A stretch of DNA of 64,000 nucleotides from a virus. Taxonomy: Duplodnaviria; Heunggongvirae; Uroviricota; Caudoviricetes. The notes beneath the pieces were generated by a model that ran no database searches, had not been told where the DNA came from, and saw only the letters and a list, made by a program, of their open reading frames with translations. The position numbers and the translations under genes are program-made. Every line of letters starts with the position of its first letter. Position 1 is the stretch's first letter. This document shows, in pieces, positions 6,738 through 33,682 of this stretch. The stretch lies in IMG/VR virus record IMGVR_UViG_2630968701_000002. The stretch is one strand, 5' to 3'.

Positions 6738-6760
6738 AATTTTCTCCTTTTAAAAATAAC

Positions 6761-7726: not shown

Positions 7727-7738
7727 AAATTTTCTCCT

Positions 7739-8296: not shown

Positions 8297-8394
8297 AATT
8301 TTTCTCCTTTAAATTCTAATCTAAAAATGAAGTTCCACGAACCACATAATAAAAAGTGGCAAGTGGACTTCTACTATTAATTACTTATTTTCTC

Positions 8395-9156: not shown

Positions 9157-9171
9157 AATTTTTCTCCTTTT

Positions 9172-9414: not shown

Positions 9415-9473
9415 AAGTTTTTCTCCTTTAAATATGATAATTTTTCTGAATACAATTTTTCATATATAAAAAA

Positions 9474-10076: not shown

Positions 10077-10299
10077 TAATTTTTTCTCCTTTTCTTTTAA
10101 ATTATATTTTCATTTGAAATTACACTACTCTCAAACCCTTGAAAGCATAGTATTTAGTTTTTCTCCTTTCTCTAAATCGTCATTATTTGTTTACATGTTA
10201 AATATGAGTGATGGAAGATTTTATAAAAAATACTTGCAGTTCGAACATACTTTCTGTATAATACAAAAGAAGCATAAATTGAATTTGCATGGACGGTTT

Positions 10300-11385: not shown

Positions 11386-11403
11386 AATTTTTTCTCCTTT
11401 TTC

Positions 11404-11805
11404 TTAGATCATAGCTCTTAATTCATTCACGACTTCGTTTAAAATCGATACATCTCCATCAATAATGTAACGAGAATTAATATCGATTCCTCGATTGAAA
11501 TTTTCTGGAATATCGATTTCTCCTGCCCATTTTTCATTTTCTTTCGAAAACCAATCTTCATAGGTATAATACTGAACTGTATTTGCGATCATAAATACAA
11601 CTCGATCTTCTCCAAAATCATCAAGAAGCTCTTTTACAGCTTGTTTTAAATTGGTTGTTCTATTCCGATCAAGGATATATTCGATCGCTGTTTTGCATGC
11701 AAGATTCCATTGTTTCGAATCAAGATAAAGATCTATACTCAGTTCTTTCCTTGCATCAGCCAATGTTCCTTTGTAAACAGGAAAATACTTCTTATTGTTA
11801 TTCAT
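11404..11805 (-). CDS. DUF3849-domain protein (typical of Firmicutes conjugative elements)
   Basis: PVYKGTLADAR...NLACKTAIE...FGEDRVVFMIANTVQ...FSKENEKWA. Confidence 0.75.
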   Translation of the reverse strand: MNNNKKYFPVYKGTLADARKELSIDLYLDSKQWNLACKTAIEYILDRNRTTNLKQAVKELLDDFGEDRVVFMIANTVQYYTYEDWFSKENEKWAGEIDIPENFNRGIDINSRYIIDGDVSILNEVVNELRAMI

Positions 11806-11828
11806 AACTTTTCTCCTTTTACAAAGCT

Positions 11829-12164
11829 TTACCGGCAACAACCGACAACATATTTTTTACTTCCTGGAAAGATTGAATTAGAAACAGCAAGAATTTCTGC
11901 ATCATCTTTTGTTAAAAGATCAAACAAAGTGTTTTTTGCTTCTGGAAATGGCATCCCATGATCCATTAACATCTGACCGGCACAAGCTATTTTCTTTCTT
12001 AGAACATAACCTACATGGAAATAAAAATTCTCCACAAAATCTTCAAAAGAAATGTTCGAATTCTGTGTTTCTACATATTTTTCATGCATCTCATTTTTGA
12101 TTTCAATGATCAGATCTTTGAATACTTCTGATTCCTTAACTTCTAAGATATTTTCTTTACTCAT
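11829..12164 (-). CDS. Hypothetical protein
   Basis: 111-aa ORF after a promoter motif and RBS. Confidence 0.6.
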   Translation of the reverse strand: MSKENILEVKESEVFKDLIIEIKNEMHEKYVETQNSNISFEDFVENFYFHVGYVLRKKIACAGQMLMDHGMPFPEAKNTLFDLLTKDDAEILAVSNSIFPGSKKYVVGCCR

Positions 12165-12261
12165 AGTAATTTCTCCTTTTTCTCTATATCGTCATCTATG
12201 TTACATTTTAAATATGAAAGATTTTGCAAATGATAAAAAAAGACCAGAGAAATCTCTGATC

Positions 12262-12420
12262 TTATAATGGCACATAGCAGGCTCTCTGATATAATGGAAC
12301 ATCTTCTCTGCGTTCTTCCTGAGTGATTGGCTTTTTTACACATAACTCTTCATTTGGACAAACGATCTTCTGTTCCCCATTGATTCCTGCAAATCTGCAA
12401 TTTTTACATGATACATTCAT
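12262..12420 (-). CDS. Small Cys-rich hypothetical protein
   Basis: MNVSCKNCRFAG...CP; RBS AGGAGA and promoter motif at 12463. Confidence 0.5.
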   Translation of the reverse strand: MNVSCKNCRFAGINGEQKIVCPNEELCVKKPITQEERREDVPLYQRACYVPL

Positions 12421-12489
12421 GTTAATTCTCCTTTTTTCTCTATTCTTCATTTTTTTCATACCAAATATGAGAGATGAAAAAGAAGATGA

Positions 12490-12945
12490 TTATTTTTTGT
12501 TTGCTTTTAAGTAATTTGCTTCTACTTCTTTCCAATGTTCTACCAGTTCTTTGAATTTATCTTCTACTTCATCTGCATATTCGCATTCAAAAGTGGTATC
12601 TTCATCTTTTCCATAGATCGGGCCTCTTGCAAGAGACACTTCTACCTTGCCATGAAACTTCTGATCGGTTGTATAATAATTTACTGATCCATAATAGTCA
12701 TCATAGAAGAGAGCATTTTTGGCATTTCCATATCTTTCTTTGATCGCTTTTTCCGAATATGGCATTGGCTGAGACATTTCTTTGATCATTCGAAATAAGC
12801 TAAGTCCGATAGTAATTCCAACGATCAGCTTTAACGAGCCTTCTGGATATGTTCCTGTGATCAATAAATACATAAAGTAAATTTCAAAGATCAGCATAAA
12901 GACTTTCATTGTCTTCATAACTGTTACTTGTGCACTTCGACTCAT
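12490..12945 (-). CDS. Membrane protein
   Basis: Two N-terminal hydrophobic segments. Confidence 0.65.
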   Translation of the reverse strand: MSRSAQVTVMKTMKVFMLIFEIYFMYLLITGTYPEGSLKLIVGITIGLSLFRMIKEMSQPMPYSEKAIKERYGNAKNALFYDDYYGSVNYYTTDQKFHGKVEVSLARGPIYGKDEDTTFECEYADEVEDKFKELVEHWKEVEANYLKANKK

Positions 12946-12968
12946 AAATATGTTAGCAGAGGAGAGAA

Positions 12969-13160
12969 TTACTCCCCTGCTTCTCCTTTCTTAAGATAAA
13001 ATGATATTTGTAAGAATGTTGCTACAAAAAAGCTGATAATAGCACCAATCGTAAACGCTTTTAAATTATCATAGGTCGCTTGATTATTGATCACTTGAAA
13101 CAAAATTTTTGAATAATACCCACTAATGAAAATTAAGAACAATATTCTTACTAATTTCAT
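12969..13160 (-). CDS. Small two-TM membrane protein
   Basis: MKLVRILFLIF...; RBS AAGGA. Confidence 0.5.
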   Translation of the reverse strand: MKLVRILFLIFISGYYSKILFQVINNQATYDNLKAFTIGAIISFFVATFLQISFYLKKGEAGE

Positions 13161-13174
13161 GAAACCATCCTTTC

Positions 13175-15754
13175 TTATTTTGACGCAATACGTTTTCTTG
13201 CAAGATCGATCGGAACAACGATCATAGATAATATGATGATCACTAACCACTGCATTCCATTTAATGGAGCAAGTCCTAATAATCCATATAAAAGCTGTGC
13301 AATGATCACTGCACCTGCTAAGATTCCAAAAGCGATCGCAGGGAATAATTTATTTTTTGTGATTCCTTTCAATAAATTAGCTCCTTCAACACGTACACAG
13401 AATCCGTTCATTACAGCCATAAAACATAATAAGACAAAACGTGCGGTTAGCTGTTCTACTTCTCCATGGAACATGGTTGCACATGGAAACATTAAAATAA
13501 TGTAAGCAAGGATGAAAGATGTTGTTGCCGTTCCGATTCTTAATTTTGACTGTTTATCAAATAATCCGGTTCCTTTTACAAATGGTTTTTCTTTCATGTA
13601 CTCTTCTTTTTCTGGTTCAGATCCAAAACTTAAGGAGTTTAAAGAATCCATGATGATATTAATGATCAGAATCAGTGCTGATGTTAAAAAGGCTCCTGTA
13701 CTAAAGAATGGGAATATCAGATTCAGCAGTAACAAGGAAATATTGATCGGTAACTGAAAATCAAGGAACATATTAATGTTATGCATAAATGTTCTTCCTA
13801 ATTTAATGCCACGAATGATCGATGTAAAATTATCATCTGTTAAAATGATATCTCCAGCTGCTTTTGCAACATCTGTTCCGGAATTCATAGCAAATCCAAC
13901 ATCTGCTCTTGCTAATGCAGGAGAATCATTGGTTCCGTCTCCAGTCATTGCAACAGACATTCCTGTTTCCTGTGCTAAAGTAACTAATCGAAGCTTTGTG
14001 CTTGGAGCACATCGTGCGATCACTTTTAGTCTTGGGAGAATATCTTTGATCTTATCATCTTTCATTTCAGAAAATTCCTGATCTGTTAATGCAATATCTC
14101 CATCTTCATAAATACCAGCTTCTCTTGCGATCGCAATAGCTGTTTCTAATGCATCTCCTGTCATTTCAATGACCTGAATACCAGCTTCTTTTGCTGTCTG
14201 AACAGCTTCTTTTACACCTTCTCTTAAAGGATCTCTGACTCCAACAAAGCCTTCAAACACCATATCATCTGGTAAAATATCTTTTTCAAGCTGACCATTT
14301 TTTCTTGCAAAAGCAACACAGCGAATTGCTTTATGATTGGCTTCTGATAACTGCTGTTGAATTTCTGATCTTCTGATCACATCCAAATCCATGATATCTC
14401 CGCCAACTGGATCGATATATTTGGTACAGTGTTCTAAGATTCTTTCTGGAGCCCCTTTATAATAAGAAAAAACAACATCATTTTCTTTGACTGAGACACC
14501 AGAAAATTTTAATTTACTGCTAAATGGCTGTCTGGCAACAATTTCTTTCTTCATTGCTTCATCGTAAACTTTCATCTTATCTTTTAATAAAAGAATAGAT
14601 AACATAGCTCGATCAATAGAATTTCCACCAGTGATATTCCCGTCTTTATCGAAAACAGCCTCATTGTTTAAAACAAGATTTTCCTGAAAGGCATCTCCAG
14701 AAATGATCTCTGGAGTCATAATTCCAGTTGTTAATGTTCCAGTTTTATCAGTACAAACAAGATTTAAATATGCCATTTCTGGGATCTTATTTGGATTGAC
14801 TGCAAGAATATTTGCTTTTTCCATATTCACAACATTCTGCTGAGTTACTAATTTGACGATCATTGGTAATCCTTCTGGAACTGCAGCAACGATGATCGTT
14901 AAAGCAACACTTGCTTTTTCAACAATATCTTTAAAGATCATCATCCATTCCTGGTTCTGATATCCACCACCAATGACTTCAATTACAACCATTAATGCAA
15001 ATGCTACAAATGCAGCAATGGATCCCCAGCGAGTAATGAAATCACTTAATTTATTTAATGCGATCGTTAGTGCTGTTTCTGGAGCTTCTAATGTTTGAGA
15101 ATCAACCAGCGTTTTTCCATTTACTGTGTCAATTCCCACTGTCGTGACGATCATTTTTCCACTGCCTTCCATCACAGTTGTTCCTGCAAATAAGCAGTTT
15201 TCATTGTTATAAGAATCTGATGTGATCTTTTCTGGAATATAACCTTTGATCGGCTTTTTATGGATCTCAATGGTTTCTCCATTGATCGCAGCATTACTAA
15301 CTGATACTTCGCCATCTACGATATATCCATCTGCGTAAATATCCTGTCCTAATTCGATACAGACAAGATCACCAACCACGATATCATCTTTATTGATCGT
15401 CTGAACCTTTCCGTCACGAATAACATTGCAATATTTTAAAGATGATTTTTCCTTTAATTTTCGGTTCGCTTCCTGAACGCCTTTTCCTGTTTTTACTCCA
15501 ATAGCAGTAATGATTCCTAATACAACTGCGATCATAACTGGTTCTGAAAATGTGCCAAATCCAGTGATCGCTAAAAATAACTGGATCAGAGCCATGACCA
15601 TTAACAAGATAACAATCTTATCAGAAAACAAAGCGTCCTTTACAAAATCTAAAGTTGTCTGTAATTCTGGCTCTGGCAATTTATTGGTTCCAAATTTTTC
15701 TCTTTGCGACTGCACTTCTGATGAGCACAGTCCCTGTTCTTTTTCCTGTTTCAT
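13175..15754 (-). CDS. P-type ATPase, type II (probably Ca2+-translocating)
   Basis: VPEGLP, phosphorylation motif DKTGTLT, KGAPE, DPLR, TGD, GDGTNDSPAL, multiple TM segments. Confidence 0.93.
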   Translation of the reverse strand: MKQEKEQGLCSSEVQSQREKFGTNKLPEPELQTTLDFVKDALFSDKIVILLMVMALIQLFLAITGFGTFSEPVMIAVVLGIITAIGVKTGKGVQEANRKLKEKSSLKYCNVIRDGKVQTINKDDIVVGDLVCIELGQDIYADGYIVDGEVSVSNAAINGETIEIHKKPIKGYIPEKITSDSYNNENCLFAGTTVMEGSGKMIVTTVGIDTVNGKTLVDSQTLEAPETALTIALNKLSDFITRWGSIAAFVAFALMVVIEVIGGGYQNQEWMMIFKDIVEKASVALTIIVAAVPEGLPMIVKLVTQQNVVNMEKANILAVNPNKIPEMAYLNLVCTDKTGTLTTGIMTPEIISGDAFQENLVLNNEAVFDKDGNITGGNSIDRAMLSILLLKDKMKVYDEAMKKEIVARQPFSSKLKFSGVSVKENDVVFSYYKGAPERILEHCTKYIDPVGGDIMDLDVIRRSEIQQQLSEANHKAIRCVAFARKNGQLEKDILPDDMVFEGFVGVRDPLREGVKEAVQTAKEAGIQVIEMTGDALETAIAIAREAGIYEDGDIALTDQEFSEMKDDKIKDILPRLKVIARCAPSTKLRLVTLAQETGMSVAMTGDGTNDSPALARADVGFAMNSGTDVAKAAGDIILTDDNFTSIIRGIKLGRTFMHNINMFLDFQLPINISLLLLNLIFPFFSTGAFLTSALILIINIIMDSLNSLSFGSEPEKEEYMKEKPFVKGTGLFDKQSKLRIGTATTSFILAYIILMFPCATMFHGEVEQLTARFVLLCFMAVMNGFCVRVEGANLLKGITKNKLFPAIAFGILAGAVIIAQLLYGLLGLAPLNGMQWLVIIILSMIVVPIDLARKRIASK

Positions 15755-15766
15755 AAAAATTCCTTC

Positions 15767-16528
15767 CTAATAATAAGTACAATTTGATGCAATCTCATAA
15801 TCTACATTGACCTTATGTATCGCATCATCCAATGACAATCCTCGCAGCATCCATTTCAAAACATTATTGTAGCTTGATGGATCATGAATTCCTTTTTCAA
15901 TGGTCTCTTTCATTTCAGATAGGATCATATCTTCCAGATCTTCTTCTTTTAATCGAGAAAACCGATCGATTCCACCAACCTTCAACTGCATAAAATCTTT
16001 AAATTTATGATCTTTTTTTTGATAAAATCTTCGAATGGCAGCAGAACATTCCGGTTTGATTCCACGATCTTTTGCATCATATGTGTCAACTTCCTGGATC
16101 TTTTCTTCTTTCTTTCCAAGAACAGCATTGATCGCCAGATCATCTGCTTTTTCATTCCATCGATCTCCAGTATGTGCTTCCACATGATGAAATTGAATAT
16201 CGATCATTCCTTTGAAAAAATTCATCTGATCACGATATGCCATTGTTTCTTTTTTCTTTGCTCTCCATACTCCAGTCGCCCAATATGCAATTCCTGTGTA
16301 ATCATAAAAGATATCAATCGAAGAGCATCCATATTCCAAAGCTTTATTTACTGCAAAGAGAGAAGCTTCAATTTCTCCAGAAACATTGTTCATAGAAGCA
16401 TTTTTACATCGTCCACTAAAATATTCTGGTTCTTTTGCATCTTCATAAAAGAACACAACACCATATCCGGCAGTATTGTTCGAGTAACTTCCATCTACAT
16501 ATGCGACAGCATGATTTTTCTTTTCCAT
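15767..16528 (-). CDS. rnhA: Ribonuclease HI with C-terminal extension
   Basis: YVDGSY, NVSGEIEA, YDYTGI..W, HVEAHTG...NEKADDLA (D-E-D-D set). The start is placed at MEKKN by the RBS. Confidence 0.88.
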   Translation of the reverse strand: MEKKNHAVAYVDGSYSNNTAGYGVVFFYEDAKEPEYFSGRCKNASMNNVSGEIEASLFAVNKALEYGCSSIDIFYDYTGIAYWATGVWRAKKKETMAYRDQMNFFKGMIDIQFHHVEAHTGDRWNEKADDLAINAVLGKKEEKIQEVDTYDAKDRGIKPECSAAIRRFYQKKDHKFKDFMQLKVGGIDRFSRLKEEDLEDMILSEMKETIEKGIHDPSSYNNVLKWMLRGLSLDDAIHKVNVDYEIASNCTYY

Positions 16529-16729
16529 GTCTTTTTCTCCTTTCGCTTTATTTTTTCTACATATCAAATATGAGAGATTTTGGAGAAAAAGTTTTTCATA
16601 TATAAAAAAACGAGCAGATACTGATGTAAATAATGTCAAATTAACTATTTAGTAGTAAAGTTAAAAAGACAGACACATTCCAATTAACGGAAAAGCGTCT
16701 GTCTTTTTTTTAATTTTACTTATATTTTT

Positions 16730-17617
16730 TCAATATTTTGACTGAATAATATAATGATATAACTTTTCATAATATAACTCTTCATCTTTTTTTTCAATAA
16801 CAGTCTGCTTATTAAATCGACTTAAATTGGGATTTCTTCCATATATAAAACGTCCGTTATTTCGAAAAATTCGCTCATTAATAAAGTAAGTAAAGTCTTT
16901 ATTTATATCCACATATAGTTGAATCTCTTCATCAGGCAATCCCTTTTCATCAACCAACCCAATACAATGATTCTTTGTAATTGGTAAAAACCATTTGCAA
17001 TTATTGATATCATTAGTGTCAAATAATTTTAGACATAAAACTGGACGCTCTCCGTTTAATATGAAATCATATTCAGAACGATAAATAATAATATTTTTAT
17101 TTGCTAAAATATTATTAAGCAAAACATTCAATATCCAATTTGACTCTGGTTCAACATCTCCCCACACGAAAGAAGCCAACTTCATATATCTATCAGCTTC
17201 ATTTTGTGTTACAGGTTTTCCAATATTCATAGATGTATCGTATATCCATCTTGATGTAAATTTCATAACTTCTGGCACACGTATTAACTGTAAAACTAAT
17301 AAAACGCCCAATCTGCATCTATCATTTTGATTAATAGTTTTGTTTTGCTCAATTTTATCAATAATTTTATTCCATACAGATTCTAAACGTGAAAAACCAT
17401 TTTCAATTAAATTGATTTCTTTATGTGAAATAATTCCTGATTCATTCTTAATCTCGTACAGATTTTTTTTTCGACATATATCATAAATATCAACCAATCG
17501 CTCAATATCTTTGTTTTTATCATATTGATAAATCAATGGTTTTCTCATTGGAACATGAAATGTTGTAAAACGTTTCAATAACATACGAGGAATATAATGT
17601 TGTTTCTTTGTAGGCAT
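16730..17617 (-). CDS. DUF4238-domain protein
   Basis: N-terminal KKQHYIPRMLLKRF signature; AT-rich relative to neighbours. Confidence 0.75.
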   Translation of the reverse strand: MPTKKQHYIPRMLLKRFTTFHVPMRKPLIYQYDKNKDIERLVDIYDICRKKNLYEIKNESGIISHKEINLIENGFSRLESVWNKIIDKIEQNKTINQNDRCRLGVLLVLQLIRVPEVMKFTSRWIYDTSMNIGKPVTQNEADRYMKLASFVWGDVEPESNWILNVLLNNILANKNIIIYRSEYDFILNGERPVLCLKLFDTNDINNCKWFLPITKNHCIGLVDEKGLPDEEIQLYVDINKDFTYFINERIFRNNGRFIYGRNPNLSRFNKQTVIEKKDEELYYEKLYHYIIQSKY

Positions 17618-17682
17618 TTTTTAACCAACCTTTCAATAATTTCATAAATCGGGCTGTCCATAGCTAGACAGCCCATACTATT

Positions 17683-19998
17683 TTATTTCAACAGTTCATA
17701 CTGAAACATCTTGTCAGTGATATGACTCTTATAATACGCTTTCAGATTAGTGCGTAATGTTTGTAAATATCCATTGAGTGTAGGATAATCATATACTGTT
17801 TTCTTGGATCTTCCAGTTCCTGTTTTGTAGGATGTATTCAGTTCTTTTGTAATCTGATATACACCGTATGTAAGTCTGCTGTCATAATTTGCAGTTCTCT
17901 TTGCTTCTACAAGAATATCTTCCCAGAGTTTTATAAGAGCCTTCTCATCTGCATCTAAGGTCATCTTTGTAAGATCATCAGATGCAACGGTATCTCCATT
18001 TGTGGTATCGAAACAGAGTTCGTTGCGATAATATCTACCATCAGAACCGTCAAATGATAAGCACTTATTCTGATTTGAAAGACATGTGTAAATCAGACAT
18101 GATTTTAAGAAATCATTGTCATGTGTATAGGCGTCGCCACCATCGGAATTTGTATAATAAATATCCTTTTCGTACCATTCATCTTGCGGTAACTTTTTAG
18201 CAACAAATAAAGGTAGTTTATTTAAATAATTGTCACTTCTTAAATAAAATCCTCTTGTTCCAAAATAAGTTTCTCTAATTAAAATTGAGTTCATCGCATC
18301 TGCACTATACCCAATTACTCTTAAATACCCTATGATATTGTCATTATATATAGACTTACCATCTTTTTTATGTGTAGTATCTTCTTCTCCATCACGACCA
18401 AGATAAACCGCATTTTTAATATCTGAAGGAAATTTACGTTTATCAAAATAATTAAGAAATGTTGTATTAACCTTTTTAACAATTAAATTACCTTGTGAGA
18501 CACATTTACTATCTTCTATATCTATGATTTCTAACACATAGTTATCCTCAGGAATATCAACTTTTGTGTTGTTCCAATAAACACAAGAAATAATGCTTGG
18601 CGTTGCATGAAAATATTTTCGGTTAAAAACATAACCCTTTTCAAATTTGACATTATCTGTAAGACCAATAGTTTTAAAATATTTACAAGGGCTAAATAAA
18701 ATATAGCTATCAGTATTTTGGCGTAAATAATATTTAAAACCTGACCATATAAATAAATTTGTTAATTCTCTAAAAGAACCTTTACTCTCTCTCAAGGCAT
18801 TCATATTTGCAACATATTCTTGTGTTACAAAATTATTTTTTCTTCCTGTTCCTGGTCTGTCACCATTATCATCCACATAAGTAATGGCAGAACTATCTTG
18901 ATATGGTGGATTTTCAAACAGAATAATCGTACACCCATCATCATCCACATACTGTTTCATCAATGGATTTTCGATAAAGTCTTTACTCATAGCATCTGCA
19001 TTAGAAACTTTACCATTCTCGTAAATGACATTTGCTTCTGTTGGTGGAATGATATTTCGTACCTTATCACCAATTCTTTCTGATAAGACTTTATACTCAT
19101 AATACTCATATGTAGATACAACACAATGAGAAATAAGCTCATCCCCATTTTTATCAAATTTACCGATAAGAGCAGCTTCGAGATTCCCTGTGCCTGCTGC
19201 CCTATCTATGATAACATAATCATTGCCATCCGGCACACGTTCCACGGCTTTCATTACAAGTTCAGATGCTTTCTCACAATAAGCCTTTGGCGTATAAAAT
19301 GCACCTAAATCTTTTTTATTTAAACGGTCATTCAGACAGTCCATGAGATACTTGAATTTCTCATTGGTAGGTTCTGTGTATGGATTGATAAGGTCTTTAA
19401 AATGTCTTGGATCACGGATTTCTCCATTTGTGTTAATTTTACCAGTACCATCTCCAAGAAAATCGCCTTTTGTAGCAGTAGGCACTTCTCTATAATATCT
19501 TTCAGCCCATCCGACAATACAGTTTTCATCAATGTCTATCGGAACATACCAATCTGTCTCATCTGAAACACGATTAATAAGAAGTTTTTGCACCTCTGCC
19601 GAATCAACCATATCCATATAATCATACTCTGCGACAGGCGTTACATTTGAATTGAATGCATTGTTGCCTACAGATGCCGCTCCGATGTAAACTTTCTGAA
19701 TATCATCAATATAATCCATGGAATTATAGACATAAACCTTTGTTGCGTTTAAATCGATGAGTAAAATCCTTGCAGGAACCGATTCACCTTTAATGCGCAT
19801 CTTTGACAGATACTTAATCGCCTGAAATAGCACTTTTCCTGTATTATTGATGTTCAGCTTAAATTCTAAAATATTTCCGTGATACACACCGTCTGTATTG
19901 TCCACAAGTACAGATGCATCATCATTATATGGCACACGATAATTATCAAAAAAATCCATTTGACCAACGCGTTCTACAGTATATTGTTTCTTAACCAT
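17683..19998 (-). CDS. Single-chain restriction-modification enzyme (type IIG-like): PD-(D/E)xK nuclease + N6-adenine MTase + TRD
   Basis: TDG...ILEFK nuclease motif, GAFYTP, DRAAGTGNLE (SAM binding), ENPPY. Confidence 0.8.
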   Translation of the reverse strand: MVKKQYTVERVGQMDFFDNYRVPYNDDASVLVDNTDGVYHGNILEFKLNINNTGKVLFQAIKYLSKMRIKGESVPARILLIDLNATKVYVYNSMDYIDDIQKVYIGAASVGNNAFNSNVTPVAEYDYMDMVDSAEVQKLLINRVSDETDWYVPIDIDENCIVGWAERYYREVPTATKGDFLGDGTGKINTNGEIRDPRHFKDLINPYTEPTNEKFKYLMDCLNDRLNKKDLGAFYTPKAYCEKASELVMKAVERVPDGNDYVIIDRAAGTGNLEAALIGKFDKNGDELISHCVVSTYEYYEYKVLSERIGDKVRNIIPPTEANVIYENGKVSNADAMSKDFIENPLMKQYVDDDGCTIILFENPPYQDSSAITYVDDNGDRPGTGRKNNFVTQEYVANMNALRESKGSFRELTNLFIWSGFKYYLRQNTDSYILFSPCKYFKTIGLTDNVKFEKGYVFNRKYFHATPSIISCVYWNNTKVDIPEDNYVLEIIDIEDSKCVSQGNLIVKKVNTTFLNYFDKRKFPSDIKNAVYLGRDGEEDTTHKKDGKSIYNDNIIGYLRVIGYSADAMNSILIRETYFGTRGFYLRSDNYLNKLPLFVAKKLPQDEWYEKDIYYTNSDGGDAYTHDNDFLKSCLIYTCLSNQNKCLSFDGSDGRYYRNELCFDTTNGDTVASDDLTKMTLDADEKALIKLWEDILVEAKRTANYDSRLTYGVYQITKELNTSYKTGTGRSKKTVYDYPTLNGYLQTLRTNLKAYYKSHITDKMFQYELLK

Positions 19999-20116
19999 TT
20001 TCCTTTTCTCCTTGTATATTTGTTCTCATTTCAAATATGCAAGATTTGAGAAAAAAAGTGGTTCCTATAAAAAACGAGCAGATTACAGCACATTTACTTA
20101 TCTTTCTATATTTTTC

Positions 20117-24198: not shown

Positions 24199-26454
24199 TT
24201 AGAAAGCAAAATATGTCTCCACTGCTTTGTATTTCATTTCATTGATCGTCTCCTCGAATAACCTGTATCCTTGGATCTTGTAATAATCAAGAGGATTTTT
24301 TCCTAATCCCTGATAACGAGATACTTTTTGCAGATCTTCTACTTTCTGAATATGTTCTGTCCATTCAGAAATGATCGCATATGCCAAACATGATTTTAAT
24401 CTCTGTGTGATCATACCTTCTTCATTGTCATTCTCAAGTGATCCTTTTAAGAAGTCTTTTAATTTTCTGGCAGCTTTCTTCTGTTCTACATCTTCTTTTG
24501 TGATATGAAGATCCTGTAAAGGTAATCTTTTTGCCAACTTGTCATAATCAAACGATTTGCACATCATGTCAATGATCTGATAAAACAGTCCTGCAACAGA
24601 AAACTGATTTAAAACTTTTGATTTTGCATCAATCACAGCTTCAAACTGAAGATTGTCGATCTTGTCATAATCAAACAGATTTTTTCGAATTCCATAGTAG
24701 TTCTGTTCAATTTTCTTCTGTGTCTTCAACACATGGTTTCGCATGGTCTTATTATTTAATTCTTCTGTTTCATTTTCTAAGATTTTAGAAGAAAGTTCAC
24801 TGTTTCCATACTGTTTCATAAAATCATCTTCTAAGGAAACGAAGAACATGCTTTCCCCAGGATCTCCCTGTCTTCCAGCTCTACCGCGAAGCTGATCATC
24901 AATACGTCTGGCTTCATGCTTTCCACATCCAATTACATATAGGCCACCAAGATCAGCGACTCCATCTCCAAGTAAAATATCAGTTCCACGTCCTGCCATA
25001 TTCGTTGCGACAGTAATCGCATCAATCTGTCCGGCTTTTGCAATGATCTCAGCTTCTTTTAAATGATTTTTTGCATTTAAAACTTCATGAGCAAGCCCTT
25101 CTTTTGTTAATAGATCACTGATTCGTTCAGACATCTGTACGCTTGTTGTACCAATCAAAACTGGTCGGTGCAATTCATGAATTCCTTTGACTCGTTCAAT
25201 GATCGCATTTTCTTTTGCTTTCTTTGTAGCGTAAATCTGATCATTATGATCAACTCTGATCACAGGTTTGTTTGTAGGAATCTGTTCAACTTTTAAATGA
25301 TAGATCTCTTTAAATTCTTTCCGATCTTTGTAAACAGTTCCACTCATACCAGCTTTCCTGTCATACAGATTAAAGAGACTCTGATAAGTGATCTTTGCAG
25401 CCGTTTTTGTCTGGTCCTGTACCTCAACGCCTTCTTTTGCTTCAATCGCTTCATGCAAACCATCAGAATATCTACGATCCTGTAAGATACGTCCTGTAAA
25501 CTCATCAACGATCTGGATCGTTCCACGATCGACAATGTAATCCTTATCTTTATGCATCAGTTCTTTTGCTTTGATCGCTGTTACAACATGATGCTGATAT
25601 TTTACATTTTCCGGGGCAGAATAATTATCAATTCCAAAATATTTTTCAATCTTTGATACCCCATCCTCTGTTAAGATCACAGCTTTATCCTTTTCATTGA
25701 TCAGATAATCTCCATCTTCATCCGGTAAGATTCCACTGATCGCATCGATCTTACTTAATTCTGTTTCTCCTGTTCCTCTGACTAATCTTTCAGCTAATAC
25801 TTTTGCAGAGATAAATAACTGTTCGCCCTCTTCATTTTCATCCGAAATGATCAAAGGCGTTCTGGCTTCATCAATAAGAATGGAGTCCACTTCATCAATA
25901 ATACAGTAATGTAATGCATTTTCAGATCTTAGCGTCTTTGTCCCTAAAAAACCTCTTAAATAATCAAATCCGATCTCTGTATTTGTTACATAAGTAACAT
26001 CACAGGAATAAGCATTTCTTTTATCAATAGATGACATATCATTTAAAGAAACTCCAACAGATAATCCAAGGAATTCTAATACCTGTCCCATCCATTCTGC
26101 ATCACGCTGTGCCAGATATTCATTGACCGTTACGATATGAACACCTTTTTCTTCTAATGCTCTGACATAAGCAGGAAAGATCGAAACCAGAGTTTTACCT
26201 TCTCCAGTTTTCATTTCTACGACTTTTCCATCATATAATGCTAAAGCTCCCATTAACTGTACTGGGAAAGCATCTAACCCGATCACACGTTTTGCAGCTT
26301 CTTTTACGACTGCAAAAGCTTCCAATTTAATATCTTTCACAGGCTTTTTACGAAATTCTTCTGTTTTTGCTTTTAATTCATCATCAGAAAGCTGAGAAAT
26401 TTTTTTCTGCAGCTGTAAGATCTTATCGACTTCTGATTTTCTTTTCTGATTCAT
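24199..26454 (-). CDS. secA: SecA translocation ATPase, compact 751-aa form lacking the C-terminal Zn-binding tail
   Basis: EMKTGEGKT, VTVNEYLAQRDAEWM, DEVDSILIDEARTPLIIS, TNMAGRGTDI, RRIDDQLRGRAGRQGDPG. Confidence 0.95.
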   Translation of the reverse strand: MNQKRKSEVDKILQLQKKISQLSDDELKAKTEEFRKKPVKDIKLEAFAVVKEAAKRVIGLDAFPVQLMGALALYDGKVVEMKTGEGKTLVSIFPAYVRALEEKGVHIVTVNEYLAQRDAEWMGQVLEFLGLSVGVSLNDMSSIDKRNAYSCDVTYVTNTEIGFDYLRGFLGTKTLRSENALHYCIIDEVDSILIDEARTPLIISDENEEGEQLFISAKVLAERLVRGTGETELSKIDAISGILPDEDGDYLINEKDKAVILTEDGVSKIEKYFGIDNYSAPENVKYQHHVVTAIKAKELMHKDKDYIVDRGTIQIVDEFTGRILQDRRYSDGLHEAIEAKEGVEVQDQTKTAAKITYQSLFNLYDRKAGMSGTVYKDRKEFKEIYHLKVEQIPTNKPVIRVDHNDQIYATKKAKENAIIERVKGIHELHRPVLIGTTSVQMSERISDLLTKEGLAHEVLNAKNHLKEAEIIAKAGQIDAITVATNMAGRGTDILLGDGVADLGGLYVIGCGKHEARRIDDQLRGRAGRQGDPGESMFFVSLEDDFMKQYGNSELSSKILENETEELNNKTMRNHVLKTQKKIEQNYYGIRKNLFDYDKIDNLQFEAVIDAKSKVLNQFSVAGLFYQIIDMMCKSFDYDKLAKRLPLQDLHITKEDVEQKKAARKLKDFLKGSLENDNEEGMITQRLKSCLAYAIISEWTEHIQKVEDLQKVSRYQGLGKNPLDYYKIQGYRLFEETINEMKYKAVETYFAF

Positions 26455-26456
26455 TG

Positions 26457-27200
26457 TTACTTTTCCCTCCTTAATACTTCTTCAAGTGTTGTATAAATTA
26501 AGTTCTTTTCTGGTTCCATTCGTGTTCCATCAGGTCTTGTACAATGAGCGTTTAGCATTGCTTCTTTGGAAACAGATATGAATTTTCCTTTTGTACAAAA
26601 AACTCCAAACAACTGATCATTTTTCTTTTCATTTCCTTGAACTCTGACAACGATCGCTCCGTTATTTTTCAATGCCTCCAGACAGATTTCGCCAAAATAT
26701 GATTTCATGAATTTTACTTCTGATTCCGCAAACGCACCTGGCATATGGTAAACATCAACATCAGAATTCACATCATCCGTACAATTCAGAATTTTATCCT
26801 GATGAATCCGTAAAAGCTGATCTCTGAATTTTTTAGCCTCTTTGATTTCTTCCGAAGTGGCTTGCTCTACCAGTTTTTTTCGTTCTTTTTCCCGATCCTG
26901 CATATACAGATTTTCCGTATATCGAAAGATCAAAGGTTCCTGTCCCCATTCTCTCATACGGGCTTTATATGTTTTTTCTCCATATTTTTCTAAGAACCAG
27001 TCATGAAATTCATACAGGGTTTCTTTTTCTTCTTTTGTGAACTCTTTTTTTGTTGCTATCATTGCGAGCAGAGTTGCATTATAAGCACTCAAAAAACGGA
27101 GCATCTTGTCATTTGAAAAAGATCTTCCCATATAATTTTGAAAAGCATTGATCAAAGATTCTTTTTTCAGATCGATGATCGGAACATTATTTGCATTCAT
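26457..27200 (-). CDS. Hypothetical protein in the secB-secA unit
   Basis: 247-aa soluble ORF, 2 nt from the secA start. Confidence 0.7.
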   Translation of the reverse strand: MNANNVPIIDLKKESLINAFQNYMGRSFSNDKMLRFLSAYNATLLAMIATKKEFTKEEKETLYEFHDWFLEKYGEKTYKARMREWGQEPLIFRYTENLYMQDREKERKKLVEQATSEEIKEAKKFRDQLLRIHQDKILNCTDDVNSDVDVYHMPGAFAESEVKFMKSYFGEICLEALKNNGAIVVRVQGNEKKNDQLFGVFCTKGKFISVSKEAMLNAHCTRPDGTRMEPEKNLIYTTLEEVLRREK

Positions 27201-27210
27201 ATTCTTCTCC

Positions 27211-27609
27211 TTATTCGTTTAGATTGATAAATGGCAGATTATATGCTGGGAATTTTGAAACATTTGTAATGTTTGCAACGATCGGCCTTAAATATCCGAT
27301 CAGCAGTGCCTGAGCATTTTTTTCTAACAAAACATCAATCTTCCCACCATTTTGTATCTTTTCACTCCATTCAAATTCTGCTTCTACGGTGCATTTTAAT
27401 GCAAAAGGTTGATTATTTTCAAAATCGTCAAGATCACCTAATACCAAAGACACACTGATCACTGCATGATTTCCTTCAAGTTTTTTGATATTTGAAAGAA
27501 TATTTTCTGTTATTTCAATTTTTTCTTTGTTCATTACAAAATTAGGATTTTCCATAAATACCATTTCTGTTAAATGAGGATTTGTGTACTGGAATTCACT
27601 TACTTTCAT
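27211..27609 (-). CDS. SecB-like chaperone
   Basis: 132 aa; VSLVLG...LKCTVEAEFEW...NAQALLIGYLRPIVANIT...FPAYNLPFINL matches the SecB-family C-terminal pattern. Confidence 0.75.
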   Translation of the reverse strand: MKVSEFQYTNPHLTEMVFMENPNFVMNKEKIEITENILSNIKKLEGNHAVISVSLVLGDLDDFENNQPFALKCTVEAEFEWSEKIQNGGKIDVLLEKNAQALLIGYLRPIVANITNVSKFPAYNLPFINLNE

Positions 27610-27714
27610 ACATTCTCCACCTTTCTTATTTTATCTACATTACAAATATGAGTTTTTTTAAAAAAAAGATTTTTCACATATAAAAAACAGGTAGAAAAAT
27701 CCACCTGTTTTTGT

Positions 27715-27840
27715 TTAGATCTTTGAGATCACAAAGTTTGCTGCATAACTGACAACTGTTATAAATCCAGAACATAAAGCTGTTCCAGCAACGATTGTGA
27801 CAAAGTATTTAGCAAGATTTTTTGCGTTTGGAAGATACAT
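27715..27840 (-). CDS. SecE-like single-TM protein, 41 aa, not in ORF track
   Basis: MYLPNAKNLAKYFVTIVAGTALCSGFITVVSYAANFVISKI; strong RBS AAAGGAGAAAAAAC; overlaps the secY 3' end; resembles the WPxxxELxxYT hinge plus TM of SecE. Confidence 0.55.
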   Translation of the reverse strand: MYLPNAKNLAKYFVTIVAGTALCSGFITVVSYAANFVISKI

Positions 27841-29134
27841 GTTTTTTCTCCTTTCTGAGCCAGGATTTTTTGCGATAATTTACAATTAAACGTTCTCCTT
27901 TGAATGAACGAACCGTTTCTAACATCGCTCCAACAATAATGATCAGTGTTGTTCCGCCAGAATTTAAAGAAGATACATTAGATAATCCTGTAATTGCCAT
28001 TGGAACTGTGATCAGTACAAATAATAACCCGATACAGATCCATACAATCTGATTCACGGATTTTTTCAGATATTTGATCGTTTCCTCTCCAGGTCTTACA
28101 TTTTCGATCACAACGCCCTCTTTCTTTAAATTGAAAGCCATTTGATATGGATTAAACGTGATAGAAATATAAAAATAAGAAAATGCAATCATAAGGATCA
28201 GGTAAACTGCAAATCCAATCATATATTCTGGATGTTTTTTCATGAACCAGTTTGACATATTAAAATACTGCACCCATTTGATATTGCTGCCACCAAAAGC
28301 TGAAAACAATGTGATCATCTGAAATACGGTACTTGTTAAGATCGCAGGCATAACGCTGATCAATCTTCCGCTGATAGATAAATAAGAAGATTCTCTAACA
28401 GAATCACTTTCTACAGGAGCACTGCTGTACTGTAATTTGATTCTTTTTTCTATCTCATTCATGAAAATCGCAAGAATGATCAGAATGATGACAACAGCAA
28501 TTGTTGCTACCCACATCCATGCAGGATGTTTTTTCATAAATCCATAATATAAACTCTGCACATCATTTGGAATGTAAGTGATCATATTCATCATTAATAC
28601 AACCGTAATACCATTTCCAATACCTTTTTTATCAATAACTTTTCCAAGTAAGATCAGTAATAAAGATCCAAAACAAAGGCATCCAACGGTGATCAGATAT
28701 GTTGTCCATTTTTGATCTTTTAAGATCCCATTTGCTCGCAGCATGATTCCAAAAGAAAATGCGCCAACAACACTTAAAAAAATACTGAATGAAACTGTGA
28801 TACGTTCTAACTGTTTCTTTCCATAAGCTCCATTTCGTTCTAATTCTTCTAATTTTCGAAATACAACAGTAAGCATCTGAATAACAATACTTGCAGATAT
28901 GTAGATAGAGATGCCCAATGCACATAATGTCATATTCTGAAACGCTCCACCACTAAATCGGTTCATCATTCCCAAAACACTTGTTTTACTAACTAAATAA
29001 CTAAAATATGCTGTATTGATTGTCGGAATAGGAATAATATTTCCAAGCTGTACCACGGTCAGACAAAGGATCGTGATCAAGACTTTTATTCCAAATCGTT
29101 CTTCTAGTCGTTCTTTTTTCATAGTTCCCTCCAA
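27809..29134 (-). CDS. secY: SecY translocon subunit, divergent
   Basis: About 10 TM segments; IPIP, FSGGAF, ALGISIYISASI, GIGNG, VRPGEET (conserved RPG), GGTTLIIIVG. Confidence 0.92.
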   Translation of the reverse strand: MEGTMKKERLEERFGIKVLITILCLTVVQLGNIIPIPTINTAYFSYLVSKTSVLGMMNRFSGGAFQNMTLCALGISIYISASIVIQMLTVVFRKLEELERNGAYGKKQLERITVSFSIFLSVVGAFSFGIMLRANGILKDQKWTTYLITVGCLCFGSLLLILLGKVIDKKGIGNGITVVLMMNMITYIPNDVQSLYYGFMKKHPAWMWVATIAVVIILIILAIFMNEIEKRIKLQYSSAPVESDSVRESSYLSISGRLISVMPAILTSTVFQMITLFSAFGGSNIKWVQYFNMSNWFMKKHPEYMIGFAVYLILMIAFSYFYISITFNPYQMAFNLKKEGVVIENVRPGEETIKYLKKSVNQIVWICIGLLFVLITVPMAITGLSNVSSLNSGGTTLIIIVGAMLETVRSFKGERLIVNYRKKSWLRKEKKHVSSKRKKSC

Positions 29135-29136
29135 AA

Positions 29137-29721
29137 TTACATTGCTTTTTTGCAGATTAATCTGCTGATGATATCTCTACGTTTCAGATCGATCTCATTC
29201 AGATATACATCTAATGATTTTTTCGACTCTTTGATCCCGGCTTTCCTATTTTCATAATCACGGATCAATTTCTGATGTTCTTCGATCTTTTCATCACATT
29301 CTTCCATCTCCTGATCCATTTCAAGAACCGAGTTACGGATATCTTCTTCCTGTTCCTGATATTCCTGATCAATGCTCTTCAATTTTTCCAAAAATTTCTG
29401 AATATAATCTTTATTGAAATCTTCATCTAACCCCAGATCAATCTTATACATAGTGATCGCGGTTTGTGAATCCTTTCCGACAAAAACTAACCAGGCTCCA
29501 TTTAAAATAATATGTATGATCTTATTGTCTTTTGCCTCGAAGTTTTTTCCTGTGTAGATAATTTCGCCAAATTGTAGCATTTTCCGAATATTTTGAATGA
29601 TATCCTGCTCATACAAAACAATATATCTACGCAACTCTTGTCGATCAGTAATGTCTTTGATGCGCTCTACATATCGTTGTTTGCAATGCTCACTGATGTT
29701 GATATTTTCGAAACCTTTCAT
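29137..29721 (-). CDS. Hypothetical protein with C-terminal coiled coil, first gene of the secY unit
   Basis: ISEHCKQRYVERI N-terminus; 2 nt upstream of secY. Confidence 0.7.
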   Translation of the reverse strand: MKGFENINISEHCKQRYVERIKDITDRQELRRYIVLYEQDIIQNIRKMLQFGEIIYTGKNFEAKDNKIIHIILNGAWLVFVGKDSQTAITMYKIDLGLDEDFNKDYIQKFLEKLKSIDQEYQEQEEDIRNSVLEMDQEMEECDEKIEEHQKLIRDYENRKAGIKESKKSLDVYLNEIDLKRRDIISRLICKKAM

Positions 29722-29842
29722 ATAAAACTCCTTTCTTATTTTTTTCTACATTACAAATATGAGTTTTTTTAAAAAAAAGATTTTTCATATATAAAAAAAC
29801 AGATAGTAATTACACTACCTGTTTCGTTGATTAAATTTCATT

Positions 29843-31312: not shown

Positions 31313-31435
31313 AATTTCACCTACTTTCTACTATATTATTCTCTTCTGTCTTCAATAACCTTTTCCACATCACACGCTGTCAGCTGTGCTTCCACGATTC
31401 TGTAAATATCCACGCTGCAATCAACTCCGTCAAAC

Positions 31436-32017
31436 TTATCCCATTATCGAGCAACCACATTTATTGCAATGATATGACTTGTGACCGTTGTATTTCGACA
31501 CATGTATTACAACATCTGCACCGCAATTAAAGCAATTACCGTTTATTGTTTGTGGTGTTGCGTATTCTTCCACTTCTTCGTCCTGCACGAATCTCTGACC
31601 GCACCAATAACATTGTTCTGTGCTATATGGCATTTCTCCGCATATAGGACACTCTGGAATCATTCCGTACCCATCGTTCACTATTGGAAGTTTGATTGGA
31701 TCTTTCTTTGCGTATATCTTCCATAATTCTTTACGTCTGTTCTCTTGTGCTTCATCATTCAGTCTTTCAATTCTTTCATGTTCTTCTTTATTCCACCAAT
31801 GAACGCAAGCCTTATCCGTTGGGTCAATGTCTATATCATAATTTTGCATCATACAGTGATAACCATATTTTTTGCGACCATAACTATTTCTTTTTTCGCA
31901 TCTTACGCACCCAGCGCATTTTTTATCTAACAGTTCTTCTGGATAAATAATCTTGTTATAATCTTCTTTTATTTTTTCAATCCCATCTGAAAATTTTATT
32001 TCACTCATCATTTTCAC
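31436..32017 (-). CDS. Multi-zinc-ribbon hypothetical protein
   Basis: Several CxxC pairs. Confidence 0.65.
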   Translation of the reverse strand: MKMMSEIKFSDGIEKIKEDYNKIIYPEELLDKKCAGCVRCEKRNSYGRKKYGYHCMMQNYDIDIDPTDKACVHWWNKEEHERIERLNDEAQENRRKELWKIYAKKDPIKLPIVNDGYGMIPECPICGEMPYSTEQCYWCGQRFVQDEEVEEYATPQTINGNCFNCGADVVIHVSKYNGHKSYHCNKCGCSIMG

Positions 32018-32597
32018 TCCAATCTAATTTCTGACAACACTCTTGACAGTATTTCATCTTCTTTCTTGCAAGCATTTCTGTTGTGCATAGGTTGGTTTTG
32101 CAGTTCGGGCATAAATCGTATGGTACTCCATCAATCCCATAATATCCTAAATTTAATTTTATGCTCTTTTCTTTATCATATTGTTCCGATGCAAAGAACT
32201 CTTTATCAAATTTTTGCACATACTCTTTTATATGTTTCTGAAGGATTTTAAACTTTGCATCCTTCTCCGGCAAATCTTGATGATTTATATAATCAATTGG
32301 ATATTCATTTACAATATCATTTTTTATTTCGTCACCAGAAACAACTTTCCAAAATATTTTCTGATTTAAGATTACATCCCTCATTGCAATATTTCCATGT
32401 AATAAGTTATAAACATTTAATAAAGATATCTTTACAACAATATATTCTCCATTTTCTATATCTGTACATAATGCCAAATAATATTGACACTCATCATCTT
32501 TACATAAGAAAAAAATTGGAACATATTCATAATCAACTAATATATGATCTAAATATATATTTTTATTATCCAAAATAAAACACAATTCTTTATTCAT
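32001..32597 (-). CDS. Hypothetical protein with C-terminal zinc ribbon
   Basis: CPNC...YCQECCQKLDWS phage-type tail. Confidence 0.6.
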   Translation of the reverse strand: MNKELCFILDNKNIYLDHILVDYEYVPIFFLCKDDECQYYLALCTDIENGEYIVVKISLLNVYNLLHGNIAMRDVILNQKIFWKVVSGDEIKNDIVNEYPIDYINHQDLPEKDAKFKILQKHIKEYVQKFDKEFFASEQYDKEKSIKLNLGYYGIDGVPYDLCPNCKTNLCTTEMLARKKMKYCQECCQKLDWSENDE

Positions 32598-32599
32598 TT

Positions 32600-33682
32600 T
32601 TATCCTCCATATTCTTTTACGAATCTTTTCAAAAGCATGACTGCTTTCTTTGGGGGAATTCCTCTTTTTCTTTCAGCACCAATTTCTTCAGTGATTTTTC
32701 CAAGACAGTGATCACTGATATTTTCATTAATATGAAAATCGTATCCTTCTAAGGAATACATATCTCTGTTAGCGTCTGGAAATTCATGATATCCAACTGG
32801 CTGCAAATTCCATAAATCGATTGCAAGATGCAACGCTTCATCCTTTAAATCATATAATTTAAATTTCTCATTTTTCGCACGATGTAACTGATAATGGGCA
32901 GCAGGATATTCTTTACGAAAACTGTGATACGCTCGATCAATGCTATTATGCTGAATATCTCTTTTTCTTTTTGCTTCCTTATTAATGCTGTATAAGCATT
33001 CTGCTACAATTTTTTGCGTTAGCTCTATGGAATTAATCTTTTCCAGTTCCTTTTCTGCTTTTTCTTTTAATTCATCCAGATACTTTTGCTCTCGATCAGA
33101 AAAATCATTCGGAATGATATTGACAACGATTGGTTTTACACGATATCGCGAATCATCAAATCCTATACATGCTTTGTAATGCGGAATTTTATTTTTTTTG
33201 ATCTGAGTCACAGTAAGTGTTGTCTCATGCCATCCATCCGGAAAAATTCTAAACGCATCGACATTCCCAAATTTGTTAACAGGTAACTTATATCCCATTT
33301 CCTTTGGAGCCAGAGGATTTGTACATTTTTTCATTGCATGCGAGATCCAATCACGCTGTAATTCCTGTGTTTCTTCAAAACGGTAATATATTTTGTCTGA
33401 TTTCAGATAACCACATAGTTTCTTCAATTTTACCTGATCCATTCGATTCTTCTCAGGATCTAAGGACGCATAGAAAATTCTCTTCTTGGAATTTGATAAG
33501 ATTCCTTTTTCCTGTTTGCAAGAAAGCCATTCAAAATTTTCTAATATATGTGTTGCCATATGAGAAAATGCCCGACCAAATTCCATTTTAAAGTTTGAAT
33601 CATCCAGGATCGTCACAACAATACAATCTTCTTTCTTTTCTAATTCACCCAGACAAACACAAGATTTTTTACTATTATCCAT
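32600..33682 (-). CDS. Hypothetical protein with YkyB-like C-terminal domain
   Basis: LYSINKEAK...LYDLKDEAL...GYH pattern. Confidence 0.5.
   Translation of the reverse strand: MDNSKKSCVCLGELEKKEDCIVVTILDDSNFKMEFGRAFSHMATHILENFEWLSCKQEKGILSNSKKRIFYASLDPEKNRMDQVKLKKLCGYLKSDKIYYRFEETQELQRDWISHAMKKCTNPLAPKEMGYKLPVNKFGNVDAFRIFPDGWHETTLTVTQIKKNKIPHYKACIGFDDSRYRVKPIVVNIIPNDFSDREQKYLDELKEKAEKELEKINSIELTQKIVAECLYSINKEAKRKRDIQHNSIDRAYHSFRKEYPAAHYQLHRAKNEKFKLYDLKDEALHLAIDLWNLQPVGYHEFPDANRDMYSLEGYDFHINENISDHCLGKITEEIGAERKRGIPPKKAVMLLKRFVKEYGG

Follow-up and report, generated by a model that had tools for sequence, protein, structure and literature searches.

A divergent SecY and SecA pair on a mobile-element-like stretch of gut DNA, a probable accessory Sec translocon

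Sec translocation is usually regarded as a core, chromosomal and immobile function, and to our knowledge the known second copies of Sec genes are chromosomal adhesin-export systems. We analysed a 64,000-nucleotide stretch of DNA (IMG/VR record IMGVR_UViG_2630968701_000002; hereafter the window), which encodes a divergent SecY channel, a small single-pass membrane protein in the SecE position and a C-terminally shortened SecA motor. These lie within six consecutive minus-strand genes at 29721-24199, each preceded by a good ribosome-binding site. With moderate confidence, we read this set as a mobile element's accessory Sec translocon, serving envelope proteins that the element itself encodes. 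An earlier note, made from the sequence alone, had proposed five linked Sec-locus genes here (secY, secE-like, secB-like, an unnamed gene and secA). All five were confirmed on the minus strand, and the gene identifications were correct, including the SecB-like protein and the hidden SecE-like open reading frame (ORF), whose assignment is weak.

At the level of sequence, the identities of SecA and SecY are unambiguous. The SecA motor (751 aa; 24199..26454, minus strand) contains four SecA Pfam domains (SecA_DEAD, 336.6 bits; P-loop_SecA, 222.9; SecA_PP_bind, 122.3; SecA_SW, 71.3). Motif inspection agreed with the earlier claim that the Walker and helicase motifs are intact: Walker A (MKTGEGKT at 81), Walker B (DEVDS at 187), TVNEYL, GMSGT, TNMAGRGTDI and RGRAGRQGD were all present. 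Among the NCBIfam models, the SecA equivalog TIGR00963 was passed (802.1 against a cut-off of 800) and NF009538 scored 805.7 against 814. The SecA2 models for the accessory Sec system (aSec; TIGR03714, 633.6 vs 930), the B. anthracis type (TIGR04397, 717.9 vs 1085), Listeria (NF012136, 565.4 vs 1100) and mycobacteria (TIGR04221, 549.5 vs 725) were all failed. The protein ends after the scaffold domain, with one Cys in its last 100 residues and no C-terminal zinc motif (SEC-C tail); PF02810 was found on nearly all listed full-length Lachnospiraceae housekeeping SecA proteins and was absent from the members of the element's own clade. Identity to SecA homologues was 65-99% within this clade and then dropped to 45-50%, the exceptions being a few truncated sequences at 53-71%.

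SecY (437 aa; 27809..29122, minus strand) scored 206.5 bits on Pfam PF00344 against a cut-off of 32.2. It keeps RPG at 343, GIGNG at 167 and GGT at 389, in agreement with the motifs claimed for it earlier. Its start was set at the ATG at 29122, which has GGAGGG upstream and gives the 437-aa length of the database copies; a TTG at 29134 was rejected in favour of it on these grounds. The SecY equivalog TIGR00967 was missed by 3 bits (250.5 vs 253.6), and both SecY2 models were failed (NF009082, 110.4 vs 353; TIGR02920, 103.7 vs 249.6). The SecY homologues formed a small clade at 61-100% identity, after which identity fell to 35% for housekeeping SecY of Clostridia.

Maximum-likelihood trees of SecA and SecY, a check suggested in the earlier note, were built from 24 rows each (LG+G4, Salmonella outgroup); C. 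difficile SecA2, B. anthracis SecA2/SecY2 and the SecY of the Hodor megaplasmids described below were not among the rows. The results showed that the element proteins form their own clade with 100/100 support in both trees, on a long stem of 0.66-0.69. In the SecA tree, the clade was nested among the clostridial SecA proteins (100/100) and stood clear of Bacilli SecA1 and of the SecA2 proteins of S. aureus and Listeria; in the SecY tree, it stood apart from S. aureus SecY2 and from the housekeeping SecY of Anaerostipes. Together with the four failed SecA2 and two failed SecY2 models, this separation upholds the earlier view that the pair is not a SecA2/SecY2 system. The two trees were similar in internal shape, consistent at the sequence level with SecY and SecA evolving together. 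A second SecY/SecA pair, found in one Anaerostipes genome (G010), was sister to the element clade, with support of 97/94 and 96/95; this position may be an artefact, since the join lies between long branches.

Comparison of gene order in the relatives pointed to a conserved core. In relatives at 61-65% identity (L034, L001, L005, L011), the order was SSB, SecY, a small ORF, SecA, a class A penicillin-binding protein (PBP), a small gene, AIM24, a topoisomerase III-like gene and further genes. In the copy from an uncultured Anaerostipes metagenome-assembled genome (MAG G001; L034), where the PBP gene is frameshifted, the run continues with a lipoprotein, a 679-aa protein, a 1271-aa surface protein with YDG/MBG(YGX)/Big domains, RNase H, signal peptidase I (Peptidase_S26, E 4e-37) and a DnaE-type polymerase. 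Judged from its gene content, the element of these relatives duplicates several host housekeeping functions. In G010 (L033, C66:100915-120900, 6291-15930), a 1136-aa ORF is followed by SecY (418 aa), a 51-aa ORF, SecA (734 aa) and a topoisomerase; the 1136-aa ORF matched no Pfam family and its N-terminus is signal-peptide-like by eye. As far as sequence can tell, the conserved core is therefore SecY with the small ORF and SecA, which together behave as a module placed in varying surroundings, and in the window type a promoter, a SecB-family gene and a 247-aa gene are inserted between the small ORF and secA. Among the module copies, the SecB-like, 247-aa and 194-aa genes occur in the window type only.

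The small ORF of the window (41 aa; 27715..27840, minus strand) shares 32 nt with the 3' end of secY, follows an AGGAGA ribosome-binding site and encodes one predicted transmembrane (TM) helix. SecE was its sole match in Pfam (PF00584, E 0.011, 16.0 bits against a cut-off of 22.7) and in NCBIfam (secE_bact, TIGR00964, E 0.0054, 16.6 against 27.55), and the match covers profile positions 17-53 of 55, the hinge and TM part. When family members of the ORF were examined, SecE was matched by two of five, the best at E 4.9e-4. Every relative examined, the distant one included, has a corresponding ORF, equipped with a ribosome-binding site, in the interval between secY and secA; these small ORFs share an M-x-Y-[LIV]-P motif and one TM helix, and the 51-aa ORF of G010 likewise has FYVP and one TM helix. 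A profile search of the PDB with the family returned only an aquaporin, which was judged a chance match and rejected. By its position, topology and weak similarity, the 41-aa protein may tentatively be called SecE-like, a label short of proven SecE.

The six genes appear to form two transcription units. A promoter-like sequence of about 58 bp is repeated almost exactly ahead of the 194-aa gene (29742..29799, minus strand) and ahead of the 132-aa gene (27631..27688, minus strand). Its 20-mer core, AAAAACTCATATTTGTAATG, is exact at 29749-29768 and 27638-27657 and occurs exactly twice, against 0.08 occurrences expected by chance, and a terminator-like hairpin at 29825-29796 precedes the first copy. 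The repeat ahead of both gene groups indicates one unit of the 194-aa gene, secY and the 41-aa ORF, and a second of the 132-aa gene, the 247-aa gene and secA. The two units of the earlier note are thereby upheld; its gene list is extended by a sixth gene, the 194-aa ORF at 29721-29137, which heads the secY unit.

Selection on the six genes was assessed from near-identical copies on separate gut metagenome contigs, 7-15 per gene, by counting distinct codon changes (pN/pS). SecY (62 synonymous, 12 non-synonymous) and SecA (39 and 7) both gave a pN/pS of 0.05. The 41-aa ORF (10 and 2) and the 194-aa gene (22 and 6, 13 loci) gave 0.06, and the 247-aa gene (6 and 2) gave 0.08. No stop codon was found in any compared copy. 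These values, with the lack of stop codons, indicate that all six are coding genes kept under purifying selection. For the SecB-like gene, with 20 synonymous and 21 non-synonymous changes (pN/pS 0.26), the counts speak for weaker or partly diversifying constraint.

The carrier has the character of a large mobile element. The window is about 33% GC (locally 29-39%) with nearly all long ORFs on the minus strand, a one-stranded gene array. The window and contigs identical to it contain LPD1, RadC, DUF3849, DUF4314, YopX, D12 methylase, TnpB, PARP, RtcB and P-type ATPase genes, and TIR, GmrSD, HNH and methylase cassettes are present in some identical contigs and absent from others. This gene content, with the strain-variable cassettes, argues for a large mobile element rather than a chromosome core, and the mobile context claimed earlier is borne out by the one-stranded array, the LPD1/RadC/DUF3849/DUF4314/YopX/TnpB content and the variable defence cassettes. 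The window and the called genes of identical contigs contained neither a ribosomal (spc) operon or nusG nor Asp1-3, GtfA/B or a serine-rich substrate, as the earlier note had reported for both sets. In the index of a metagenome collection, 487 blocks contain the identical SecA protein, the contigs ranging up to the 0.2-1 Mb class, and the contig titles and run labels suggest human and animal gut as the source. In some isolate-sized assemblies, 85% of the words of the locus were present.

Several side observations concern this carrier. Comparison with L006, L007, L008 and L010 revealed a variable cassette site at about 16700-20000, between a 63-aa gene and an RNase H gene; it is empty in some copies, holds a 771-aa gene and a DUF4238 gene in the window and in L007, and holds EcoRI-type methylase, TIR, GmrSD/HNH and HNH genes in L010. 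At about 31400-32600, comparison with L008 and L009 showed that some copies have a 526-aa TnpB-type insert between a 198-aa and a 190-aa gene, an insert that the window itself does not have. The window also encodes a P-type cation ATPase (859 aa, 10 TM helices; 13175-15754) and a 488-aa PARP-domain protein (47309-48775).

The host is probably a human-gut Lachnospiraceae, a Firmicute of the genus Anaerostipes. The only clade member among the GTDB species genomes was MAG G001, which also stood alone among the 401 Lachnospiraceae species genomes sampled; in the others, the best matches listed were 32-39% identical. G001 encodes an 856-aa SecA on contig C31, besides a 739-aa SecA that adjoins the clade-type SecY on contig C222. 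In 17 of 20 Anaerostipes species genomes, a SecY of 438-440 aa scored 360-367 bits and stood in its own context. A low-scoring extra SecY type was found in only two of the 20, G010 (208 bits) and G001 (204 bits), and in G010 it is a second copy besides the housekeeping SecY. The 856-aa SecA of G001, the 440-aa Anaerostipes SecY at 365 bits and the rarity of the clade (1/401) bear out the earlier expectation that the window genes are not a host's only housekeeping copies.

A search of phage and plasmid databases for the same synteny had also been suggested; it found no clade member in the phage, plasmid and IMG/VR collections. Megablast against the phage and plasmid collections gave no match, tblastn against the phage collection gave no match above 47% identity, tblastn against the plasmid collection gave no clade member, and IMG/VR, scanned with both the protein and the clade alignment, likewise yielded none. 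Candidate phage-borne Sec matches were 'UNVERIFIED_ORG' records that proved to be host chromosome fragments, and the SecY match on the C. difficile 'plasmid' NZ_CP033217.1 lies in a ribosomal spc operon; both were rejected. Matches in such records should not be taken for phage- or plasmid-borne Sec genes, and those with phage labels (OR844989.1, OR844990.1, OR846764.1 and others) served as reference sequences only. Phage-labelled Staphylococcus, Listeria and Enterococcus records include the whole SraP-SecY2-Asp-SecA2-Gtf locus.

The first gene of the second unit encodes a 132-aa protein (27211..27609, minus strand) that belongs firmly to the SecB family, on the combined evidence of transitive homology, profile search and predicted fold. 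Alone, it gave SecB (PF02556) as its sole Pfam match (E 0.032, 14.6 against a cut-off of 26). Its relatives at 39-45% identity carry Pfam SecB above the cut-off, and PF02556 was matched by 8 of 13 aligned family members, the best at E 1e-12. The family profile found SecB only in the PDB (1fx3, E 1.8e-6). In the AlphaFold (AF2) model (pLDDT 82), the predicted chain matched the SecB fold at a TM-score of 0.65-0.71, and the top 19 Foldseek hits were all SecB or SecB-like Rv1957 (TM by query 0.55-0.71). The zinc-binding C-terminal peptide of SecA is the main docking site of SecB (PMC4257090); the element SecA does not have this tail, and host-type SecA proteins do. The SecB-like protein would therefore have to work through another surface, bind to the host's tailed SecA or, as SecB-like chaperones of toxin-antitoxin systems do, serve a client outside export. 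No toxin or antitoxin family was recognised beside its gene with Pfam or NCBIfam. Indel variation was seen among copies in an acidic loop (the DLDDFEN region). The closest SecB-like relatives outside the element follow a 195-aa gene and a 230-aa DUF6575 gene (L038, 6721-8390) in a neighbourhood of cell-wall polysaccharide, sortase and LytR genes, a set that may be a three-gene chaperone-dependent module. A 135-aa gene after the PBP in the relatives was considered as a SecB-like counterpart and rejected for want of similarity.

The remaining two proteins of the locus belong to no recognised family. The 247-aa protein (26457..27200, minus strand) represents a family of 91 representative clusters (~90, at 50% identity), and its AF2 model is very confident (pLDDT 95.3). 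Pfam, NCBIfam, a PDB sequence search, Foldseek against the PDB and a search of the Atlas gave nothing useful; the AFDB clusters returned only uncharacterised proteins, and VIA-align gave generic helical matches with a best Z of 6.5. The model thus presents a confidently predicted new fold. Distant members of this family occur on various other mobile-element-like contigs that have no Sec genes; those of the SecB-like family likewise stand in contexts without Sec genes, separate from them, and the two families were not found paired elsewhere. The 194-aa protein (29137..29721, minus strand; AGGAG ribosome-binding site) opens the secY unit. Its C-terminal half is a coiled coil, and it matched no Pfam or NCBIfam family above cut-off.

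The favoured reading joins these observations as follows. The channel, SecY with the 41-aa single-helix partner in the SecE position, and the C-terminally shortened SecA are a co-inherited pair, taken to be co-evolving and transcribed from a promoter type of the element's own. The pair would form a second translocon working beside that of the host, whose task would be the insertion or export of envelope proteins that the element encodes. Candidate substrates, taken from the neighbours in relatives, are the class A PBP, the lipoprotein and the MBG/Big-domain surface protein, with signal peptidase I; by analogy, the logic would be that proposed for the Hodor megaplasmids (PMC12934698). In the window type, the secA unit would have gained two extra genes, the SecB-like and the 247-aa gene, and the SecB-family protein probably holds unfolded clients. 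The P-type ATPase, the largest membrane protein in the window, is a possible client of an element-encoded translocon.

A number of results weigh against this reading. Within the 64-kb window, candidate substrates are few, namely the P-type ATPase and a few small membrane proteins, and the PBP, signal peptidase and surface-protein neighbours belong to relatives of 61-65% identity rather than to the window type. The comparable regions of the relatives share with the window only SecY and SecA, plus RNase H in one case. The SecE assignment of the 41-aa ORF lies below all model cut-offs, and hhalign gave no alignment between its family and the housekeeping SecE of Anaerostipes. The SecB-like and 247-aa genes stand outside the conserved module. 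In addition, the separate host SecA was seen in the MAG of a relative, not in the same cell as the window type, and in that MAG (G001) no housekeeping SecY was detected, its sole SecY being the clade type at 204 bits, probably because the MAG is incomplete. Of the near-complete, four-part translocase described in the earlier note, SecY, the small ORF and SecA stand as parts kept in relatives; the SecB-like protein is confined to the window type, the SecE match is sub-threshold and SecA has no tail for SecB docking.

The same genes could instead be a host-independence module of a phage-like or takeover element, whose own SecYE and SecA would act as a general Sec back-up during an active phase, when host expression or Sec is shut down or overloaded. 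In favour of this, the model scores suit a general rather than a specialised machine, in that SecA passes the generic model (802 vs 800) and SecY nearly does (250.5 vs 253.6); the shared promoter-like motif ahead of both units suggests a private transcription programme, and the relatives' own DnaE-type polymerase, SSB, topoisomerase, RNase H and signal peptidase I duplicate host functions. However, no virion genes were seen in the window or its readable flanks, the clade is absent from IMG/VR and the phage collection, and no YidC, SRP, SecDF or SecG was seen, so that duplication of the pathway is partial. We consider this explanation unlikely, though it deserves to be kept in mind.

A role in conflict is less probable still, and we would be surprised if it proved correct. 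Under this explanation, SecY and SecA would be a resistant replacement or a decoy against Sec-targeting agents (competing elements, bacteriocins or abortive infection), or the SecB-like protein would be a toxin-antitoxin-type chaperone for a neighbouring client, with no export role. The element is indeed rich in TIR, GmrSD, HNH, methylase, PARP, TnpB and HicB-like cassettes. SecB-like chaperones of toxin-antitoxin systems are well documented (PMC4257090) and the fold of the 132-aa protein also matches Rv1957; its closest relatives lie in non-Sec contexts after two small genes, and its gene evolves faster than its neighbours (pN/pS 0.26 vs 0.05). However, SecY, the small ORF and SecA have been co-inherited over 35-40% divergence under strong purifying selection with catalytic motifs intact, which argues for a working translocon and not a decoy, and the surroundings of the SecB-like gene revealed no family of toxins or antitoxins in Pfam or NCBIfam. 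Finally, that these are the ordinary chromosomal secA and secY of an unusual bacterium, or a known SecA2/SecY2 member, is highly improbable: the generic SecA model is passed, but no spc operon, nusG, asp or gtf genes lie nearby, the SecA2 and SecY2 models are failed by wide margins, the clade is separate in the trees and present in 1 of 401 family genomes, and G001 has a housekeeping SecA besides the element-type copy.

The set differs from the known accessory Sec systems, and its only rival is the SecYGE of the Hodor conjugative megaplasmids of the human gut. As described by Yuan et al. (bioRxiv 2026, PMC12934698), these encode hyp-SecY-SecG-SecE and trigger factor together with sortase B and giant surface proteins with MBG domains; their GC content is 44.6-47.1%, and Rep_3, ParABM, a type IV secretion system (T4SS) and sortases are further features. 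The likeness, drawn from the published description, is as follows: both are giant mobile elements of gut Bacillota with their own SecY, small partner subunit(s) and a chaperone, both have a gene of no recognised family ahead of secY, both have an MBG(YGX)/Big-domain surface protein near the module (here in the relative G001), and both are usually unbinned or mis-sorted in metagenomes. They differ in GC content (44.6-47.1% there, about 33% here) and in the chaperone, which is trigger factor there and a SecB-family protein here. Hodor has SecG, whereas neither SecG nor trigger factor was seen in the window; SecA does not appear in the text of that paper (PMC12934698), whereas it belongs to the core here.

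The aSec system of streptococci and staphylococci (SecA2, SecY2, Asp1-5, GtfA/B and a serine-rich repeat (SRR) adhesin) likewise encodes a second SecA next to a second SecY, supplies the extra SecY with small membrane partners and follows the logic of a dedicated substrate; Asp4 and Asp5 are described as SecE- and SecG-like. However, the element proteins fail TIGR03714 (634 vs 930) and TIGR02920 (104 vs 250), and no Asp1-3, Gtf or SRR genes stand in the window or among the called genes of contigs identical to it, whereas the genuine S. aureus locus has them. The element clade also falls with clostridial SecA, away from S. aureus SecA2/SecY2, and is carried on a mobile element. The SecA2-only systems (Listeria, mycobacterial and B. 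anthracis-type) share an extra SecA paralogue but have no dedicated SecY beside it, and the element SecA fails all three of their models. A lone secA lies among hypothetical genes on the circular megaplasmid BTB_502p of Bacillus thuringiensis Bt407; it is 41.7% identical to the element SecA and has no secY annotated within 6 kb. Proteobacterial SecB and the Rv1957 toxin-antitoxin-chaperone (TAC) proteins share family and fold with the 132-aa protein, which differs in being carried on the mobile element of a monoderm, next to a SecA without zinc tail and with no toxin-antitoxin pair recognised.

Extra SecA/SecY pairs and, since 2026, a gut-megaplasmid SecYGE are thus already known. In the literature searched and in the phage, plasmid and IMG/VR collections, we found no mobile SecY/mini-SecE/SecA module of clostridial descent, none outside all named SecA2/SecY2 families and none with a SecB-family gene in the secA operon. 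The statement of the earlier note that it knew of no such arrangement needs qualifying by the published Hodor SecYGE (PMC12934698) and holds, in the literature searched, for the SecY/mini-SecE/SecA module.

A bolder version of the favoured reading can be offered only tentatively, and we regard it as doubtful on present evidence. SecY, a 41-aa remnant of SecE and the tail-less SecA would be a portable, self-sufficient minimal translocase, independent of host Sec and passed in cassette form among giant elements of gut Lachnospiraceae that are otherwise unrelated, and the window type would have recruited a SecB-family chaperone able to dock without the zinc tail. If true, it would provide the first case in a monoderm of SecB cooperating with a Sec motor, as well as a SecYE reduced to a minimum by nature.

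The finding matters in that mobile DNA frequent in human-gut metagenomes here carries a channel together with its motor, with the catalytic features all kept under strong selection. The 41-aa partner would offer a natural test of how little SecE suffices for SecY, and the tail-less SecA beside a SecB-family protein offers a direct test of whether SecB and SecA work through another interface. Together with the report of the Hodor SecYGE, the module suggests that giant elements in gut Firmicutes commonly come with an export route of their own, which bears on how such an element remodels the surface of its host, spreads and competes.

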